Positions 34,365 to 50,765 of a stretch of DNA of 64,000 nucleotides are shown here, piece after piece. Every line of letters begins with the position of its first letter. Position 1 is the first letter of the stretch. The position numbers and the translations under genes were made by a program. Below the pieces are notes generated by a model. That model was not told where the DNA came from and did not search any database. It worked only from the letters and a program-made list of their open reading frames with translations. The DNA comes from Escherichia coli (lineage in GTDB: Bacteria; Pseudomonadota; Gammaproteobacteria; Enterobacterales; Enterobacteriaceae). The DNA lies in assembly GCF_001677475.2 (NCBI RefSeq), contig NZ_CP015229.1. One strand, 5' to 3'.

Positions 34365-35042
34365 ATGAAGTGGGACTGGATTTTCTTTGATGCCGATGAA
34401 ACGCTGTTTACCTTTGACTCATTCACCGGCCTGCAGCGGATGTTTCTTGACTACAGCGTCACCTTTACCGCTGAAGATTTTCAGGACTATCAGGCCGTTA
34501 ACAAGCCACTGTGGGTGGATTATCAAAACGGCGCGATCACTTCATTACAGCTTCAGCACGGGCGGTTTGAGAGCTGGGCCGAACGGCTGAACGTCGAGCC
34601 GGGTAAACTCAACGAAGCCTTTATTAATGCGATGGCGGAAATCTGTACGCCGCTGCCGGGCGCGGTTTCTCTGCTTAACGCCATTCGTGGCAACGCCAAA
34701 ATCGGCATCATCACCAACGGCTTTAGTGCCTTGCAACAGGTGCGTCTGGAACGCACGGGCCTGCGTGATTACTTCGATTTGCTGGTGATTTCCGAAGAAG
34801 TTGGCGTTGCCAAACCGAATAAGAAAATTTTCGATTATGCGCTGGAACAGGCGGGCAATCCTGACCGTTCACGCGTGCTGATGGTTGGCGACACTGCCGA
34901 GTCCGATATTCTCGGTGGCATCAACGCCGGGCTTGCGACCTGCTGGCTGAATGCGCACAATCGCGAGCAACCAGAAGGCATCGCGCCCACCTGGACCGTT
35001 TCTTCGTTGCACGAACTGGAGCAGCTCCTGTGTAAACACTGA
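34365..35042 (+). CDS. yjjG: Pyrimidine 5'-nucleotidase YjjG (HAD family)
   Basis: ORF track 225 aa; HAD motif [10 protein letters not shown]. Confidence 0.9.
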
Positions 35043-35427
35043 TTGCCTCCCCCCCGTTGATGGGTAAAATAGCCGCAATTTTTCGTTTTCAACAAGCGCG
35101 GCGCGATGCCGCTTACTCAAGAAGAAAGAATTATGACGTTGTCTCCTTATTTGCAAGAGGTGGCGAAGCGCCGCACTTTTGCCATTATTTCTCACCCCAA
35201 TAATTAAGCCTAAATTAAAGCTCTTTTACTTTTTCAAAGTCCTTTCAGTTAATTGATGTTTGGTTTTATAAGTCATTTAAATACAGTTAGTTATGTGGCT
35301 TCTTTAATTGAAAATTCTTTCATGTAACTTTAAATCGATCAGGTTGCTTTCATCAAAAATCTGTACATATGCTTGTACATAATGTACAAAGCAGCAGAGG
35401 TGTTTTGCGATTTGTACAAGGTGAGTA

Positions 35428-36663
35428 ATGGCGCTGTCTGATGCGTGGTTGCGTTCAGTCGTTGGAAAGGAACGTGATAAGGTTTTGGTTAAATCCGATC
35501 GTGATGGTCTGTCTGTCAGAGTATCACCGAAAGGTCGCGTAGTGTTCCAATATCGTTATCAATGGGCAGGGAAAGGTGAGCGCCTTGATATCGGAACTTA
35601 CCCGGCAACTGGATTAAAAGAGGCCAGAGAAGAAGTTATCCGTCTCCGTGGTGAACTCGAGTCAAACCGCAATCCACGATTAGTCAAGCAGGCTGAAAAA
35701 CGAAAAGCTACTGAAGCCATGACGGTAGAGTCTGTGATCCGTGCCTGGTATGAAGCATATTGTGTAAAAAATAAAAAAGGTTCTGAACAGATACTCCGCT
35801 CGTTTGAGCTGCACCTGTTCTCTAAAATCGGGAATATCCCTCACGATGCAGCTACATTGCATGATTGGTTAGAAGTCCTGGAGCCTCTTAGCACCAAGAC
35901 TCCAGCAATAGTAGACCGATTGCTAATTAACGCAAAGCAGGCTCATGTCTGGGCGTATAAGAGAAAGCTCATTGAAACTCGCCCACTGTCGGATATCACG
36001 GGTAAAGATATGGATATCCGTAAAGGTCAGAAAAAACGGTTTCTGACACATGATGAAATTAACATCCTTTATGCTGCGATCGATGGTTCTCGAATGGTTC
36101 CTAAATACCGAGCCTTCATTAAACTATTGCTGCATTTTGGTTGCCGTAGTTCAGAGCTAATTACTGCTAGGGTGGATGATTTTGATTTCATAAATAAGGT
36201 ATGGACTGTACCACCAGAACGACATAAGACTGGGGACATAACAGGCGAACCGCTAAAGCGGCCCATTATTGAACCGGTTGAAGAGCTTATAAAATACGTT
36301 ATCTCTATGAACAACGGTTCCGATATGCTTTTTACTAAGGAAGGAAGCAGGGAGCCAGTTGGTCGGACATCATTGCAGTCGCTGCCTTACAATTTAATGC
36401 AGTTCGCATGGCGACGTTTGGGGTATCAATTTCCTCATTGGTCTCTTCATGATTTGAGACGAACAGCACGAACAAACTTTTCTGATCTTACTGCTCCTCA
36501 TATTGCTGAAATAATGCTTGGTCATAAACTGCCAGGTGTATGGCAAGTTTATGATAAGAGCGATTATCTAGAAGAACAGCGTAAAGCTTACTGGGCATGG
36601 TGGGAGAGGGTTGAATCGATCGTTACTTGTACTGACTTAATCTCCAACGGACAGTTTGCGTAG
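35428..36663 (+). CDS. int: Phage tyrosine integrase
   Basis: ORF track 411 aa; C-terminal catalytic region with HDLRRTARTN and LGH..VYD motifs; RBS AAGGTGAG. Confidence 0.85.
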   Translation: MALSDAWLRSVVGKERDKVLVKSDRDGLSVRVSPKGRVVFQYRYQWAGKGERLDIGTYPATGLKEAREEVIRLRGELESNRNPRLVKQAEKRKATEAMTVESVIRAWYEAYCVKNKKGSEQILRSFELHLFSKIGNIPHDAATLHDWLEVLEPLSTKTPAIVDRLLINAKQAHVWAYKRKLIETRPLSDITGKDMDIRKGQKKRFLTHDEINILYAAIDGSRMVPKYRAFIKLLLHFGCRSSELITARVDDFDFINKVWTVPPERHKTGDITGEPLKRPIIEPVEELIKYVISMNNGSDMLFTKEGSREPVGRTSLQSLPYNLMQFAWRRLGYQFPHWSLHDLRRTARTNFSDLTAPHIAEIMLGHKLPGVWQVYDKSDYLEEQRKAYWAWWERVESIVTCTDLISNGQFA

Positions 36664-36821: not shown

Positions 36822-37955
36822 ATGAATTATGAAAAATATCATAGCACAAACAGAAGCAAGGGTTTGCGAACCTTCTGCTACTTAATTTATTATGTGCAGG
36901 TGATTTTTAATGTGATGAAGTGTTTTATGACTCGCGGAAACTTTGATTTTATAAACTCTAACGTGGTTTTCTCAGAAGCCGATAAGTCATTGTGGATTGA
37001 TCTCATTAACACCGATTGTATTTGGTATGATATGATAATTAATCCTCCTGATGATATAAGAACAAATAAGATAATAAAGAACTATCTCAGAATTATGGAA
37101 AAATATACGAGGGAAAGCTGTGAAAAGAGATTTATTTATTTCTTAGGTTCAAGAAAAAAAGTGAGGTTTTCAACCAAGAAACAGCCTAGGTATAACCCAT
37201 TCACAAAAAATATAGTATTCACTCTGTTGATTGGCAAAGAAGAGCGAAAGCTTCGGATAAAATATTCCTTTTGCACGTTTACGCAGAATGGGGTAGTGAA
37301 GGTAACTCCAAATGTTAGAGTAACTGAGAAGTTTCTCTACATTGAATATGAAAATGGCAATTTATGTGTGATGTCAGTTCATGATTTCGTAAACGGACAT
37401 TATATTGATTTAGGAATTCATACAGAAGTGCATTACGTAGGATATACACGTCATCCGCATCGGCGCCCTGTTGATTTTATTCACCGTGGCTTATCAAAGA
37501 TGCTGTATAGCGTTTCAAATGACGATAATGATTTTTTTGTTTGTTTTAGTATATTTAATCCAAGGATTATATCTCTGAATAATAAATGTAATGTGGTCTT
37601 TAATATTTCAAATTCTCTACTGGATGAAATTGATGTTGATAATGAGGGGAGAATTATTGAAAACTGCTTAATACGTTACTTTGATCCTAAGCTTCAAGAT
37701 GATGACAAGGAAAGTAAAAGGTCAGATTTAAATAAAATGTTTATGGACCTGGTGGAAAATAAAAAAATTAAAAAAATATACGTTAATTTTCAATATGAAA
37801 GGAATAATGAGTATTTCTGCTTTTACTCTAAAGTTGTTCCGCCGAAATTTCATCATTTCTTTGTGTTGGATTTTTCTGATGGCAAGATAAATATTGATAG
37901 AGACCAGGATATGATGACTCAGATGGCATTGTGCATGGGGTATTATAATTATTAA
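36822..37955 (+). CDS. Hypothetical protein, AT-rich orphan gene adjacent to integrase (candidate moron)
   Basis: ORF track 377 aa; ATG start; GC far below prophage average; no recognisable domain. Confidence 0.45.
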   Translation: MNYEKYHSTNRSKGLRTFCYLIYYVQVIFNVMKCFMTRGNFDFINSNVVFSEADKSLWIDLINTDCIWYDMIINPPDDIRTNKIIKNYLRIMEKYTRESCEKRFIYFLGSRKKVRFSTKKQPRYNPFTKNIVFTLLIGKEERKLRIKYSFCTFTQNGVVKVTPNVRVTEKFLYIEYENGNLCVMSVHDFVNGHYIDLGIHTEVHYVGYTRHPHRRPVDFIHRGLSKMLYSVSNDDNDFFVCFSIFNPRIISLNNKCNVVFNISNSLLDEIDVDNEGRIIENCLIRYFDPKLQDDDKESKRSDLNKMFMDLVENKKIKKIYVNFQYERNNEYFCFYSKVVPPKFHHFFVLDFSDGKINIDRDQDMMTQMALCMGYYNY

Positions 37956-38164: not shown

Positions 38165-38359
38165 TTACTCAATAACTCCAGCAAATCTGTATATTTTGCG
38201 TGATGCCCATTTATTTGGGCAGGATTTAATATCAGGATCTGGAAAATCTGGCCTGTATTTCTGGCCTGTCCTCCTGTTTACGCTGTTCCAGCGAAGCACC
38301 GTCGATATTGAAACGCCACAGAATTCGGCGACTTGTTTTGTTGTCATTAAGTTGCTCAT
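38165..38359 (-). CDS. xis: Excisionase / AlpA-family DNA-binding protein
   Basis: ORF track 64 aa; TTKQVAEFCGVSISTVLRW HTH typical of phage Xis/AlpA. Confidence 0.7.
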   Translation of the reverse strand: MSNLMTTKQVAEFCGVSISTVLRWNSVNRRTGQKYRPDFPDPDIKSCPNKWASRKIYRFAGVIE

Positions 38360-43996: not shown

Positions 43997-44811
43997 GTAT
44001 GGAGCTGATGGTTAAAGCGATGAAAATTCGAGTGGGTAATCCATTGCGAAAACTGGTTCTGATCAAGCTGGCTGATAATGCCAGCGATCAGGGTGAGTGC
44101 TGGCCCAGCTACCAGCATATTGCTGACCAGTGCGAGATTAGCAAACGTTCTGTGATGAATCATATTGCGGCCCTTTGTGATTCCGGGCTGGTAAAAAAAG
44201 TCACCCGGAAAGGTGAAAAAGGTAACTCAAGTAATATCTATCTCCTTCATCTTGATGGTGCAGGAGATTCACTAGGGGGTAGTGCAAATAATTCACTATC
44301 TGGTGCAGCAAATTCACCAGGTAGTGCAGGAGTTGCACCAGGGGGTGGTGCAGGAGATTCACCCAGAACCAGTCACTCTTTTGAACCAGTCAAAGAACCA
44401 GTCAATGAACCAATAGCTGTTGGTGCATCTGCTGATGAGTCTGTGCGAGTTCGTTCAAACCGACCGGAATACTCTCCGGAGTTTGAGCAGGCATGGCTGG
44501 CATACCCCAAACGTGCTGGTGGCAATTCAAAATCTGCAGCCTTCAAAGCCTGGAAAGCCCGTTTGAATGAGGGGGTAAAACCCGAAACCATGCTGGAAGG
44601 TGTGAAACGCTACGCGGGCTGGGTATCTGCGATGGGTAACAGCGGCACACAATTTGTGAAACAGGCTGTCACGTTCTTTGGTCCGGATCGTCATTTCGAA
44701 GAATCCTGGGAAGTTCCTGCGGTATCTGCAGCCAGACGCGAGGACCCGTACTTCAAAGCCAGTTACGACAACGTGGACTACAGCCAGATCCCGGCAGGAT
44801 TCAGGGGGTAA
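43993..44811 (+). CDS. Phage replisome organiser with DnaT-like C-terminal domain
   Basis: ORF track 43954..44811; N-terminal HTH (LIKLADNASDQGECWPSYQHIADQCEISKRSVMNHIAAL); Gly/Ser/Ala linker; C-terminus ...DYSQIPAGFRG close to host DnaT ...[10 protein letters not shown]. Confidence 0.65.
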   Translation: MSMELMVKAMKIRVGNPLRKLVLIKLADNASDQGECWPSYQHIADQCEISKRSVMNHIAALCDSGLVKKVTRKGEKGNSSNIYLLHLDGAGDSLGGSANNSLSGAANSPGSAGVAPGGGAGDSPRTSHSFEPVKEPVNEPIAVGASADESVRVRSNRPEYSPEFEQAWLAYPKRAGGNSKSAAFKAWKARLNEGVKPETMLEGVKRYAGWVSAMGNSGTQFVKQAVTFFGPDRHFEESWEVPAVSAARREDPYFKASYDNVDYSQIPAGFRG

Positions 44812-44813
44812 TC

Positions 44814-45302
44814 ATGAGTCTTTTGAATGAAGTTCAGAAATTCATTGAAGCCCATCCGGGGTGTACTTCCGGAGACATTGCAGATGCTTTTGCAGGTTAC
44901 TCACGGCAGCGCGTTCTGCAGTCAGCAAGCAAGTTACGTCAGAGTGGGCGTGTGGCTCACCGTTGTGAAGGAGATACACGCAGACATTTCCCGCGCCTGA
45001 CTGAGAGAGCGCAGGAGCCGGAACCACAACCAGTTCGTGAAACCAGACCTGTGCGCAATTTCTATGTCGGCACTAACGATCCCCGGGTAATTTTGTGCCT
45101 GACCCGCCAGGCTGAAGAACTGGAGTCCAGGGGCTTATACCGTCGTGCTGCAACCGTGTGGATGGCGGCATTCCGTGAAAGCCACTCCCAGTCAGAACGA
45201 AACAATTTTCTGGCGCGCCGTGAGCGGTGCTTACGGAAAAGCAGCAAGCGCGCTGTATCGGGTGATGAGTGGTATCTGTCAGGGAATTACGTGGGGGCTT
45301 AA
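44814..45302 (+). CDS. PerC-family-like transcriptional regulator
   Basis: ORF track 162 aa; LESRGLYRRAATVWMAAF...RRERC resembles PerC/Pch motif. Confidence 0.5.
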   Translation: MSLLNEVQKFIEAHPGCTSGDIADAFAGYSRQRVLQSASKLRQSGRVAHRCEGDTRRHFPRLTERAQEPEPQPVRETRPVRNFYVGTNDPRVILCLTRQAEELESRGLYRRAATVWMAAFRESHSQSERNNFLARRERCLRKSSKRAVSGDEWYLSGNYVGA

Positions 45303-45955
45303 TGAGTAATAAATATTGCCAGGCGCTGGTGGAACTGCGGAACAAACCAGCCCATGAACTGAAGGAAGTGGGCGATCAGTGGCGCACGCCGGACAACATT
45401 TTCTGGGGAATTAACACCCTGTTTGGCCCGTTTGTTCTGGATCTGTTCACCGACGGTGATAACGCCAAATGTGCCGCGTATTACACGGCGGAAGACAATG
45501 CGCTGGCGCATGACTGGTCAGAACGTCTTGCGGAGCTTAAAGGTGCTGCCTTTGGTAATCCCCCATACAGCCGCGCCAGTCAGCATGAGGGGCAATACAT
45601 CACCGGCATGCGTTACATCATGAAGCATGCCAGTGCCATGCGTGATAAGGGCGGACGCTATGTTTTCCTGATCAAAGCTGCCACCAGCGAAGTGTGGTGG
45701 CCGGAAGATGCAGATCATATTGCTTTTATTCGCGGGCGTATTGGTTTTGAAGTGCCTGCCTGGTTTATCCCGAAAGACGAGAAGCAGGTGCCGACAGGCG
45801 CTTTCTTCGCTGGTGCTATTGCTGTTTTCGATAAGACCTGGAAGGGACCGGCAATCAGCTACATCGGGCGCGATGAACTTGAGGCATGTGGTGAGGCGTT
45901 TCTGGCGCAGGTTCGCCAGCAGGCAGAACGGCTGGTCAGGGAGATAGTGGCATGA
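45302..45955 (+). CDS. Phage DNA N6-adenine methyltransferase (Dam-like)
   Basis: ORF track 45269..45955; start at MSNKYCQALVEL; catalytic NPPY motif (FGNPPYS). Confidence 0.7.
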   Translation: MSNKYCQALVELRNKPAHELKEVGDQWRTPDNIFWGINTLFGPFVLDLFTDGDNAKCAAYYTAEDNALAHDWSERLAELKGAAFGNPPYSRASQHEGQYITGMRYIMKHASAMRDKGGRYVFLIKAATSEVWWPEDADHIAFIRGRIGFEVPAWFIPKDEKQVPTGAFFAGAIAVFDKTWKGPAISYIGRDELEACGEAFLAQVRQQAERLVREIVA

Positions 45956-46341
45956 AGCTGATCCTGCCTTTTCCGCCCAGCGTGAACACGTACTGGCGAC
46001 ACCCCAACAAAGGGGCGTTTGCAGGTAAGAGCCTGATAAGCGCGGCGGGGCGCAAATTCCAGAGCGCGGCGTGTGCAGCAATAGTTGAGCAGTTACGTCG
46101 TCTGCCGAAACCAACGTCGGCACCTGCTTCAGTGGAGATCGTGTTGTTTCCTCCGGATAACCGGATCCGCGATCTGGACAACTATAACAAGGCGCTGTTT
46201 GACGCCCTGACCCACGCGGGTGTGTGGGAAGACGACAGTCAGGTGAAAAGAATGCTGGTGGAGTGGGGACCGGTTATCCCGGAAGGGAAGGTCGAGATCA
46301 CTATCAGTAAGTACGAGAAAACGGCGGGTGCAGCCGCCTGA
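45952..46341 (+). CDS. rusA: RusA-family Holliday junction resolvase
   Basis: ORF track 129 aa; MKLILPFPPSVNTYWRH...RDLDNYNKALFDALTHAGVWEDDSQV. Confidence 0.8.
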   Translation: MKLILPFPPSVNTYWRHPNKGAFAGKSLISAAGRKFQSAACAAIVEQLRRLPKPTSAPASVEIVLFPPDNRIRDLDNYNKALFDALTHAGVWEDDSQVKRMLVEWGPVIPEGKVEITISKYEKTAGAAA

Positions 46342-46360: not shown

Positions 46361-47203
46361 ATGAATAATCTGATGGTCATTGATGGTATTGAAGTTCGTC
46401 GTGATGCTTATGGGCGTTACAGCCTGAACGATCTGCATCGGGCTGCTGTTGCATCTGGTGCAAATGCCAGAACTAAGGAGCCGGGAAAGTTTCTTTCCAG
46501 CCAACAGATTACTGAGCTGGTTCAGGAATTGATCGATACCCAAAATTTGGGTGTCGGTTCATTCAATGAAACTACCCAAAATTTGGGTAGTAAACCAGTA
46601 AGTAAAATAGAAGGGCGGAATGGAGGAACGTATGTCTGCAAGGAACTGGTGTATGCCTATGCAATGTGGATCAGCCCGTCATTCCATCTGAAGGTGATCC
46701 GTACTTTCGATATGGTAACCAGCACACCGGAAAAATTATCCGGGCAGGCTGCTGACAAGATGCAGGCTGGCGTGATCCTGCTGGACTTTATGCGCCGGGA
46801 ATTAAACCTGTCTAACTCATCAGTGCTTGGAGCCTGTCAGAAGCTTCAGGAGGCTGTTGGCTTACCGAATCTGGCACCGCGCTATGCCATTGATGCTCCT
46901 GCTGACGCGCCTGATGGCTCAAGTCGCCCCACGCTGTCGCTGAGTGCACTGCTGAAACAGTATGGTATCCGCCTGACGGCTAATCAGGCATATCACCAGA
47001 TGGTGAAGCTGGGGATCGTTGAACAACGCGAACGATACAGCCGTACCGCGATTAACAACATCAAAAAATTCTGGTCGCTGACGGCGAAAGGCTGCATGTT
47101 CGGCAAGAACATCACCAGTCCTGCAAATCCGCGCGAGACGCAGCCGCATTTCTTCGAATCCCGATTCCCTGAGCTGTTAAAGCTGCTCGATACCGTTCAT
47201 TGA
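46361..47203 (+). CDS. KilA-N domain protein
   Basis: ORF track 46328..47203; start MNNLMVIDGIEVRRD with GAGGAG RBS; N-terminal KilA-N-like region. Confidence 0.55.
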   Translation: MNNLMVIDGIEVRRDAYGRYSLNDLHRAAVASGANARTKEPGKFLSSQQITELVQELIDTQNLGVGSFNETTQNLGSKPVSKIEGRNGGTYVCKELVYAYAMWISPSFHLKVIRTFDMVTSTPEKLSGQAADKMQAGVILLDFMRRELNLSNSSVLGACQKLQEAVGLPNLAPRYAIDAPADAPDGSSRPTLSLSALLKQYGIRLTANQAYHQMVKLGIVEQRERYSRTAINNIKKFWSLTAKGCMFGKNITSPANPRETQPHFFESRFPELLKLLDTVH

Positions 47204-48966: not shown

Positions 48967-49111
48967 ATGATTTTCACCGAACGATGGCGACATAACGATT
49001 GTATTTTCTAAGGAAACGTGCAAAGAGTTTTCCAATGATGAGCCTTATATGCATACCGGTGGAAAATATCAATAAGCCGCGCAGAGTGGTTTTTTTGTGG
49101 ACATAAACTTT

Positions 49112-49155
49112 GTGCAGAACGGTAACCATTATGGTTGCCGTGAATGCAGTTTTTT
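49112..49155 (+). terminator. Putative tR'-like intrinsic terminator downstream of Q
   Basis: tgca-gaa-cggtaacca tta tggttgccg-tgaa-tgca hairpin followed by TTTTTTT. Confidence 0.5.
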
Positions 49156-49727
49156 TACATTGCTGGCTTTTTTAGATTTGTGTTAGTTATTGATATTAAC
49201 AAGAAGGGGAAAAGACATGCTAAAACGGCAGGATATGAAGGAAACGGTTATGCGTGAATGTTCCAGTGTGATTAACCATATCATCTGGAGAAGCCATCCT
49301 GATGCAGGGAAGAGGTAACAGTAACGCGCATCAATCAGGCTGCAAATAAATGGCTTACGCCGGAAATCTGGCTATCGATGTATTACCGGTTTGTTACCCA
49401 TGAAGAAAATTAAGGTGATAACGAAACTGATTTTATAGGTGTCTTGTCAGAGTGTTGCGATGAAACTTGTGTTGGCAGTGCAGGGAAAACAGTAGGATGA
49501 AAATTATAAATTGCTTTAAATTAGCTTGATTTTCCTCATGTTATGAGATATTTGTCTTATATTGCTGGTTAATTATGAAAATTTTTGTAAATCTACAGCA
49601 ATAAAATCCATATTAATTAAAGCACTAGATGCGTTTCTGATTTGTGCATGAAACATACATATCATAATGATTAATTGCATCTATAATTACAGATACAGCA
49701 TTGTGCTGTTAAAAAACTGGAGTCCCC

Positions 49728-49835
49728 ATGAATACATTATATGTAAGTGATTCAAATGAAAAATCTCATGACAGGAATAAAAACAATGAGGATAGTAAGG
49801 GTAAGGATAATAAAAAAGACAACCGGAAAGAGTAA
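49728..49835 (+). CDS. Candidate small hydrophilic protein (35 aa)
   Basis: Own reading: ATG with GGAG RBS, MNTLYVSDSNEKSHDRNKNNEDSKGKDNKKDNRKE; below ORF-track length cut-off. Confidence 0.3.
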   Translation: MNTLYVSDSNEKSHDRNKNNEDSKGKDNKKDNRKE

Positions 49836-49870
49836 ATAATCTTTCCTGCATAAAAATACTAGGGTGGAAT

Positions 49871-49990
49871 ATGTCAGAACATCCAGATTTTGATGACCGT
49901 AAGCCTGATGATGAGCCCGTTGAGCGTCCTGATGAGGGGCAACCATTGAACCCTTTTTCACCGGATGATAAAAGAGATCCTATTATTTAG
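49871..49990 (+). CDS. Candidate small acidic protein (39 aa)
   Basis: Own reading: ATG with GGGTGG RBS, MSEHPDFDDRKPDDEPVERPDEGQPLNPFSPDDKRDPII; followed by terminator. Confidence 0.3.
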   Translation: MSEHPDFDDRKPDDEPVERPDEGQPLNPFSPDDKRDPII

Positions 49991-50044
49991 ATATAGCAGA
50001 ATATAGCCGTTTAAAGTAGGTTGTGTTTTGTTGCTATCCTTAAA

Positions 50045-50069
50045 CCACCTCCACAGGAGGTGGTTTTTT
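50045..50069 (+). terminator. Intrinsic terminator
   Basis: ccacctcc-aca-ggaggtgg then TTTTTT. Confidence 0.7.
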
Positions 50070-50126
50070 ACTAATGGAACATTAATTGGCAGATGTGATT
50101 GTGTACAACTTATGGGAGGCTTAAGA

Positions 50127-50315
50127 TTATTTTCTGCCAATAATAAAACCAAGCGTTAACCCTATGCTTAGAGCAACCACCACGCTAGTCAGTGGATAAT
50201 TTCTAAATTTATCTTTAACGTTTTCTTTGCCTCCCTGCAAAGCATCGTCAGCACATGATGCATATTTTTTGACAGTATTAACTATTTCGTTTTCAGATTG
50301 ATTTGAAGTCATGTT
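50127..50315 (-). CDS. Small membrane-anchored protein with ElaB/DUF883-like C-terminal tail
   Basis: ORF track 50127..50411; internal ATG gives MTSNQSENEIVNTVKKYASCADDALQGGKENVKDKFRNYPLTSVVVALSIGLTLGFIIGRK. Confidence 0.4.
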   Translation of the reverse strand, partial: NMTSNQSENEIVNTVKKYASCADDALQGGKENVKDKFRNYPLTSVVVALSIGLTLGFIIGRK

Positions 50316-50765
50316 TGAAGTCCTGATGTTAAGTGGCTTTTTAATTATAGCAGATATGCTTTCAATGATAGGGCGGAGAGTTGTTATTGAGGTGATACTA
50401 TGACCACTCAATCAACATTACATAAAATGACGTTTACTCCTGTTTGGCACAGTAGCAGAATTTTGCTTCTGCTACTGAAGTCGCTTTAGCACTAGAATAT
50501 GCAGATGGATAAAGCAGTTCAGCGTATGTACTGCGTCATGCATATCGGTCTTGCAGATATGACGAGAAGGGGAGACAAGGTGTGTGTAATGTAGAAGTCT
50601 TTAAAGTGCTGTCTGGGATAACTCTATACTGAAGTGCAATTGATAAAAGTAACACGATAAAGGTTTTTCAATGAAGATGGTAACGTGATGCTTGCATTTT
50701 TCAAAAAATATGGATAAAATTTTTTCAACGATGGGCTTTGTATACCCGACGTTAAGAAAAAGTAG

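Follow-up and report, generated by a model that had tools for sequence, protein, structure and literature searches.

Why does the hexamer TGTACA occur four times within about 60 bp (35362-35418), directly in front of the ribosome-binding site of a phage integrase gene in E. coli? The locus lies within a 64,000-nucleotide (64-kb) stretch of E. coli DNA, here called the window. The initial annotation had noted the four copies, all of which are located in the sequence, and had proposed that they are either arm-type recombinase sites or a regulatory operator. The first of these proposals is favored by the presence of the word on both arms of the attachment site, by its conservation and by its fixed distance to the crossover core. 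We consider it likely that the region is the attL of a lambdoid prophage with its core in prfC, and that the TGTACA words are the arm-type sites for the N-terminal domain of the integrase (Int). From the coordinates, the core, the occurrence on both arms, the conservation and the geometry, which are directly visible, we infer that Int is the protein that binds TGTACA.

That this is the left junction of a prophage, and its int-proximal side, was borne out, but its position has to be corrected. Host DNA was thought to end after yjjG, with the prophage in the yjjG/prfC intergenic site and the expected prfC missing. In fact, 155 bp more of host DNA, identical to K-12, follow past 35042; the promoter region and the first 22 codons of prfC are present in the window, and the crossover lies within the prfC codons IISHP. 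The junction is made up of the following features:

34365-35042, plus strand: yjjG, from the list of open reading frames and so named in the annotation of strains A3 and K-12; no further intact host gene follows before the junction.
35043-35070, plus strand: promoter-like site of host prfC, TTGCCT-16-TAAAAT, found by consensus scan only; identical to K-12 attB.
35133-35207, plus strand: truncated host prfC stub, from reading the sequence and alignment to K-12 prfC.
35184-35197, plus strand: common core of attL, ATTATTTCTCACCC, the crossover region, from a four-way alignment; within the prfC codons IISHP.
35198-35427, plus strand: P' arm of the attachment site, 230 bp with 30% GC; contiguous with the other arm in free phages.

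Comparison with an unoccupied locus had been suggested as the way to find attR and the duplicated core. We aligned attB (K-12), attL (window), attR (strain A3) and attP (phage cdtI), and the 14 bp of ATTATTTCTCACCC at 35184-35197 are the sole stretch that is identical in all four, with host and phage flanks swapping around it. This placement of the core puts the prophage inside the 5' end of prfC. The stub starts with ATG at 35133 and has 22 authentic codons, followed by a phage-derived Asn-Asn-stop that closes the frame at 35207; RefSeq annotates it as a partial pseudogene in strain A3. Foreign, AT-rich DNA begins at 35198, where the GC content drops from 0.53 to 0.43-0.32, and the promoter-like site of prfC at 35043-35070 now faces the prophage int gene. 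The junction is present in 699 of 5,426 complete E. coli genomes.

The repeated words of the P' arm are arranged as follows:

35242-35352, plus strand: three CTTTCA words, at 35242, 35317 and 35347; the second most repeated hexamer of the arm.
35362-35367, plus strand: TGTACA site 1 (core +165), the first of a pair with a spacing of 12 bp; invariant in seven of seven aligned relatives.
35374-35379, plus strand: TGTACA site 2 (core +177), with a TAAT extension to 35383; the second of the pair.
35383-35388, plus strand: TGTACA site 3 (core +186); lineage-specific.
35413-35418, plus strand: TGTACA site 4 (core +216), adjoining the int ribosome-binding site; invariant in all relatives.

TGTACA is the most repeated hexamer of the P' arm. 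Site 2 together with its TAAT extension (TGTACATAAT) is invariant in all seven aligned relatives, site 3 is kept in E. coli, Salmonella and Pantoea and absent from Xenorhabdus and Serratia, and the end of site 4 abuts the Shine-Dalgarno sequence AGGTGAG (35419-35425) of int, whose ATG is at 35428. The first two CTTTCA words are semi-conserved in diverged relatives; the CTTTCA words are possible accessory sites for Xis or IHF.

In AT-rich foreign DNA such a cluster might be a mere chance or low-complexity feature. The arm has only 30% GC, the motif is AT-rich and the window as a whole contains 12 copies where 11 are expected, so there is no overall enrichment. However, four of these copies fall within 57 bp, and Markov-1 simulations (300 sequences of 64 kb) never gave more than two copies in a 60-bp span. 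When the arm itself was simulated (230 bp, 30% GC; n = 20,000), at least three copies were found in none of the sequences, compared with the four observed. Moreover, the sites are preserved unchanged in diverged relatives, and the word returns on the other arm. A chance origin is thus practically out of the question.

TGTACA is a perfect palindrome and TGTACATAATGTACA is a palindrome of the form 7+1+7. Since the word is palindromic, the orientation of a site can be read only from flanking bases such as TAAT. Arm-type sites are normally asymmetric, and a palindromic word is unusual among them; palindromes are typical of dimeric regulators. This symmetry speaks for a different reading, in which the TGTACA words are operators of another protein that controls int and the substitute prfC gene supplied by the phage; candidates are the excisionase, some phage repressor and host factors. 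The location of the sites, immediately upstream of these two genes, which are read in the same direction, would suit such a regulator as well.

A direct-repeat search found no match for attR within the window. The window stops about 20 kb before attR, which we located in strain A3 and in the closest genome, that of strain M114, which is 99.8% identical to the window. At attR, a phage-derived upstream region and a different N-terminus are fused to the remaining host RF3, and RefSeq calls this prfC intact. TGTACA is found there at -183, -114, -86 and -74 from the core in both strains. The 23-bp P-arm block TTGTACATATGATTGTACATAAT nearly repeats the attL block CTGTACATATGCTTGTACATAAT, and 17 bp separate the P-arm pair from the substitute prfC start codon, which lies downstream. 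In the free phages cdtI, Ayreon and 2H10 both arms are contiguous around the core, with four TGTACA copies on each.

The element belongs to the lambdoid prophages of the cdtI/Stx-phage type and has a length of about 48.7 kb. In M114 the two cores are about 48.7 kb apart, with a complete lambdoid prophage between them. RefSeq annotation of A3 and M114 lists genes for an antiterminator, holin, lysozyme, terminase and portal between attL and attR, as well as those for the tape measure, gpJ and tail fibre. The prophage in the window departs from that of A3 after about 21 kb; the attL/int module is identical and the late region is different, whereas M114 matches the entire window end at 99.8%. Mosaic breaks relative to the A3 prophage were seen at 45305-45952, 49007-50603 and beyond 56826 of the window.

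Some other repeats in the prophage were recorded on the way. The 17-mer TGGTGCAGGAGATTCAC occurs in four clustered copies at 44256-44362 with a spacing of 21-45 bp, and a fifth copy is present at 44963-44979, about 600 bp downstream of the cluster; the copies lie in the region of the prophage replication genes and look iteron-like. The palindrome TACCCAAAATTTGGGT is present in two exact copies, at 46537-46552 and 46573-46588, that are 36 bp apart. Outside the window, beside attR of strain A3 (46240-46300 of the A3 locus record), there are two LexA-box-like CTGT-N8-ACAG sequences that precede a dinI-like gene, the last phage gene before the P arm. For the TGTACA block itself, inspection led us to reject LexA-box and TyrR-box readings, whose spacing and half-sites do not fit.

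The proteins encoded next to the arm that are of interest as binding partners are:

35428-36663, plus strand: int, encoding a tyrosine integrase of 411 amino acids that is 97% identical to Int of phage cdtI.
38168-38359, minus strand: xis (excisionase) homologue of 64 amino acids, 92% identical to the excisionase of phage 2H10 in tblastn.

Int consists of the Pfam domains Arm-DNA-bind_3 (PF13356, residues 3-90), Phage_int_M (PF22022) and Phage_integrase (PF00589). Residues 1-80/96 match the solved arm-type binding domains 3JTZ/3JU0, the closest solved structures, and the catalytic residues R240, H341, R344, H366 and Y375 are invariant. The protein is 96-97% identical to Int of cdtI, Ayreon, 2H10 and many Stx1a- and Stx2c-converting phages. 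In distant integrases that use TGTACA, conservation is higher in the arm-binding domain than elsewhere in Int (73% vs 49% in one case and 60% vs 33% in another). TGTACA users share the strand motif S-[VI]-R-[VI]-[ST]-P-K-G-x-[IV]-x-F-Q-x-R-Y-R, and it is there that Int of Gifsy-1, whose word is TGTCCA, differs. This correlation between arm-domain residues and DNA word is suggestive for a small comparison set, in which the negative side consists of Gifsy-1/SPN3UB and P4 only; a profile-based search of viral contigs for diverse integrases returned almost exclusively E. coli relatives.

The xis homologue is co-conserved with Int in the prfC-targeting family and has its counterpart in a small ORF directly beside int in Pantoea (81%), Xenorhabdus (61%) and Serratia (44%; all by tblastn). 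This would be expected as well if the excisionase were the protein that recognizes TGTACA; since xis travels with Int, co-occurrence alone does not separate the two as binders. In lambda-type systems, though, excisionase sites are usually confined to one arm, which argues against the excisionase for a word that is present on both. Between int and xis the window has an ORF of 377 codons (36822-37955, plus strand) with a GC content of about 0.32 that matches phrog_7779, a family of unknown function; Pfam and PADLOC searches with it gave no match. In the relatives from Pantoea, Xenorhabdus and Serratia the xis-like ORF directly adjoins int, so the 377-codon ORF has the appearance of an inserted moron.

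Absence of the hexamers from related prophages had been named as an argument against the initial annotation; they are in fact kept in diverged relatives. Int homologues are found at the same prfC core in Salmonella (84% identity), Pantoea (82%), Xenorhabdus (65%) and Serratia (61%). The arms of these relatives can hardly be aligned any more; apart from the core, three TGTACA sites and the int start, no block is invariant. The P' arm has retained a length of 228-233 bp in all four. In all lineages its pair lies at +164/+176 (+165/+177 in the window) and its last site between +214 and +216, and in Serratia these core distances hold even though the distance to the int ATG has shifted by 4-5 nt. 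On the P side, a scan of species-representative genomes for TGTACA-N6-TGTACATAAT revealed pairs directly upstream of prfC in Xenorhabdus, Budvicia, an Osedax symbiont, two Moraxella, Vitreoscilla and a Burkholderiaceae metagenome-assembled genome. As in E. coli, these pairs are positioned at -86/-74 from the core, to within 2 nt, with a leader that ranges from 13 to 21 nt and a substitute N-terminus of 14-17 codons (42-51 nt) before the core. Altogether, the sites at -86/-74, +164/+176 and +215 are kept within 2 nt across eight genera, with Int identities down to 61%. As far as these alignments go, the positions track the crossover core and not the neighbouring genes. Since a promoter or an operator is expected to hold its distance to the gene and a recombination site its distance to the crossover, this favors a recombination site, and an operator of another protein is at odds with positions that are locked to the core and not to the start codons that follow. 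Conserved among the relatives are two pairs with a spacing of 12 bp, one per arm, and a single site by the int start; the E. coli phages have three additional copies. The attP extends from about -183 to +221 around the core, with two pairs and one site as the conserved minimum.

The same considerations apply to the idea that the conserved block is chiefly a promoter and that the repeats have no role in recombination. TGTACATAAT provides CATAAT, which equals the -10 consensus TATAAT at five of six positions, and copies of it precede the int ATG by 44 bp and the ATG of the substitute prfC by 16 bp. Furthermore, the phage must supply a promoter for prfC, since the authentic one is cut off by the integration (PMC2323221). 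However, no -35 partner at a spacing of 16-18 bp turned up in a consensus scan, and the first hexamer of the pair, just 10 bp upstream of CATAAT, is too near to it. The start codon is 13 to 21 nt away, or 58 nt in a relative that targets an aspartokinase gene, whereas the core distance is constant, and Acinetobacter-type relatives have TAAT on the other flank of the pair with respect to int. A block that is primarily a promoter is therefore very improbable, but a dual role, as arm site and as -10 element in analogy to KplE1, is possible.

How widespread is the word? Among 120 matches to TGTACA-N6-TGTACATAAT in viral contigs, 53 lie at most 150 bp upstream of the start of an Int homologue, and 20 of these 53 homologues have less than 60% identity to Int of the window. 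In species-representative genomes, 12 of 120 matches are upstream of an Int homologue and 8 of 120 directly upstream of prfC; since the pattern required TAAT, the conservation of TAAT among the matches holds by construction. The word is thus also encountered upstream of Int homologues of 32-55% identity, in other genera and with other targets, which argues against an operator of another protein, Int being the only partner protein tested for in these distant elements. The IMG/VR contig 3300046665_000308 of the Acinetobacter type is an example: its Int is 45% identical, it inserts into the 5' end of an aspartokinase-like gene (MALIVQKYGGTSMG), and it has TGTACA pairs at both ends as well as TGTACA directly before the int ribosome-binding site. 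A circular Morganella element (Int 50% identical) has the proximal pair and just one clear distal copy, so the rule of a pair on both arms is not universal outside the prfC family. In Moraxella catarrhalis, TGTGTACATAATTGTGTACATA was reported by PHAST as the "att site" of the prophages Mcat9, Mcat27 and Mcat28 (PMC4619438, Table 1). This sequence is the same 12-bp-spaced TGTACA pair, and probably an arm repeat that was taken for the crossover core; pairs on the arms explain why repeat-finding software reports them as "att site".

Integration into prfC has already been published, and the P4-type arm architecture is established. Ogura et al. (2007) described an Stx1 phage in prfC that alters the N-terminus of RF3 and deprives the gene of its native promoter and ribosome-binding site (PMC2323221). 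The attP is shared with the phages cdtI, Ayreon and 2H10 and the Stx1a/Stx2c phages, including the core, the substitute 5' end of prfC and the full set of eight TGTACA copies; in comparison with these phages, the cargo and structural genes of the window prophage are mosaic. Smyshlyaev et al. (2021) grouped Int of cdtI with IntSXT in a prfC-targeting "SXT cluster" of DUF4102 integrases (PMC8138268), and by its 97% identity to cdtI Int the integrase of the window would be placed in the same cluster. [quoted passage not shown]

The layout of the sites is that of P4. Int of P4 is of the same DUF4102 (IntSXT/P4) class, its gene is also read away from attP, and the arm is between core and int. In the GenBank record of P4, "attP arm sequence repeats" of 12 bp are annotated, two in tandem to either side of the core and a fifth over the int ATG; these five core-flanking repeats with their 12-bp period have the same 2+2+1 layout as the conserved TGTACA set. 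An operator of another protein would have to copy this arrangement, and with positions locked to the core and sites on both arms we regard such a regulator as unlikely. The two systems differ in the arm word (TTGGGGGCAT in P4), in the target (a tRNA-Leu gene in P4, the 5' end of a protein gene here) and in the length of the arms, which are shorter in P4 with pairs at about 54 and 113 bp from the core compared with about 68 and 164 bp here; P4 Int is only 23% identical to Int of the window. The next-closest phage integrases, those of Gifsy-1/SPN3UB from Salmonella (47% identity), go along with a TGTCCA-N6-TGTCCA pair on either arm and, before the int ATG, two copies in inverted orientation (TGGACA), but core, target and the residues of the recognition strand in the arm domain are different. 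By analogy, the TGTACA arm sites would be the ordinary lambda/P4 design with a new word. In the literature searched we found no description of the TGTACA arm sites of the prfC-phage attP and of their fixed geometry.

If the TGTACA words are arm-type sites, the C-terminal domains of Int would hold the core inside prfC and the N-terminal domains would bind TGTACA on the arms. Together with bending proteins, the P'-arm sites and the tandem pair of the P arm would then fold attP, or attL and attR, into the recombination complex, and the co-conserved excisionase (38168-38359) would set the directionality. Occupancy by Int would also throttle the expression of int in a negative autoregulation.

As to this expression, int is read away from attL and the TGTACA sites occupy positions -66 to -10 before its ATG. 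Since the arm sites cover the upstream region of a gene read in this direction, Int probably represses its own gene, and the regulatory operator of the initial annotation is then probably a secondary consequence of recombination sites, by autoregulation, and not a separate function. A consensus scan of the arm and of attP found no sigma-70 promoter that met the criteria within the arm (35198-35427), and an overlap of the arm sites with the int promoter is thus hypothetical. A scan for terminator-like sites between the promoter-like site of host prfC and int found none either; therefore, int may receive read-through from the host prfC promoter, through the stub of 24 codons. There is precedent for such an arrangement in KplE1 (CPS-53; IntS/TorI), where the int promoter is inside attL and is overlapped by arm-type sites of Int, and Int bound to the arm-type site near the -10 box represses int (PMC2951348). 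KplE1 differs from the prophage described here in its target, tRNA-Arg (argW), and in the sequence of its arm sites, and binding and repression were shown experimentally for KplE1. The same paper cites Piazzolla et al. (2006), a study that announces in its title a negative control of P4 int through Int and Vis.

Conceptually, nothing here goes beyond the lambda/P4 paradigm. However, knowledge of the true core and of the full extent of attP allows the exact calling of prophage ends, and the arm sites offer a mutable target for the control of int and the rebuilt prfC in lysogens. The same integration module carries phages for Shiga toxin and for the cytolethal distending toxin. One may also suggest, tentatively and with more doubt than confidence, that TGTACA pairs are the arm code of a clade of DUF4102 integrases in Gamma- and Betaproteobacteria, in which Int couples the expression of host genes to the element and lets elements cross-talk. 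That the word is common to the clade is largely apparent from the sequences compared; regulatory coupling and cross-talk are speculation. The integrases of this clade would invade the 5' ends of different housekeeping genes, prfC or, in the Acinetobacter type, an aspartokinase-like gene, and the int-distal pair would always come to lie a short distance before the point where translation of the rebuilt host gene starts. If true, occupancy by Int would tie the expression of RF3 to the recombination state of the element, and co-resident elements, such as an SXT-type integrative conjugative element and a prfC phage, could cross-talk via each other's integrases.
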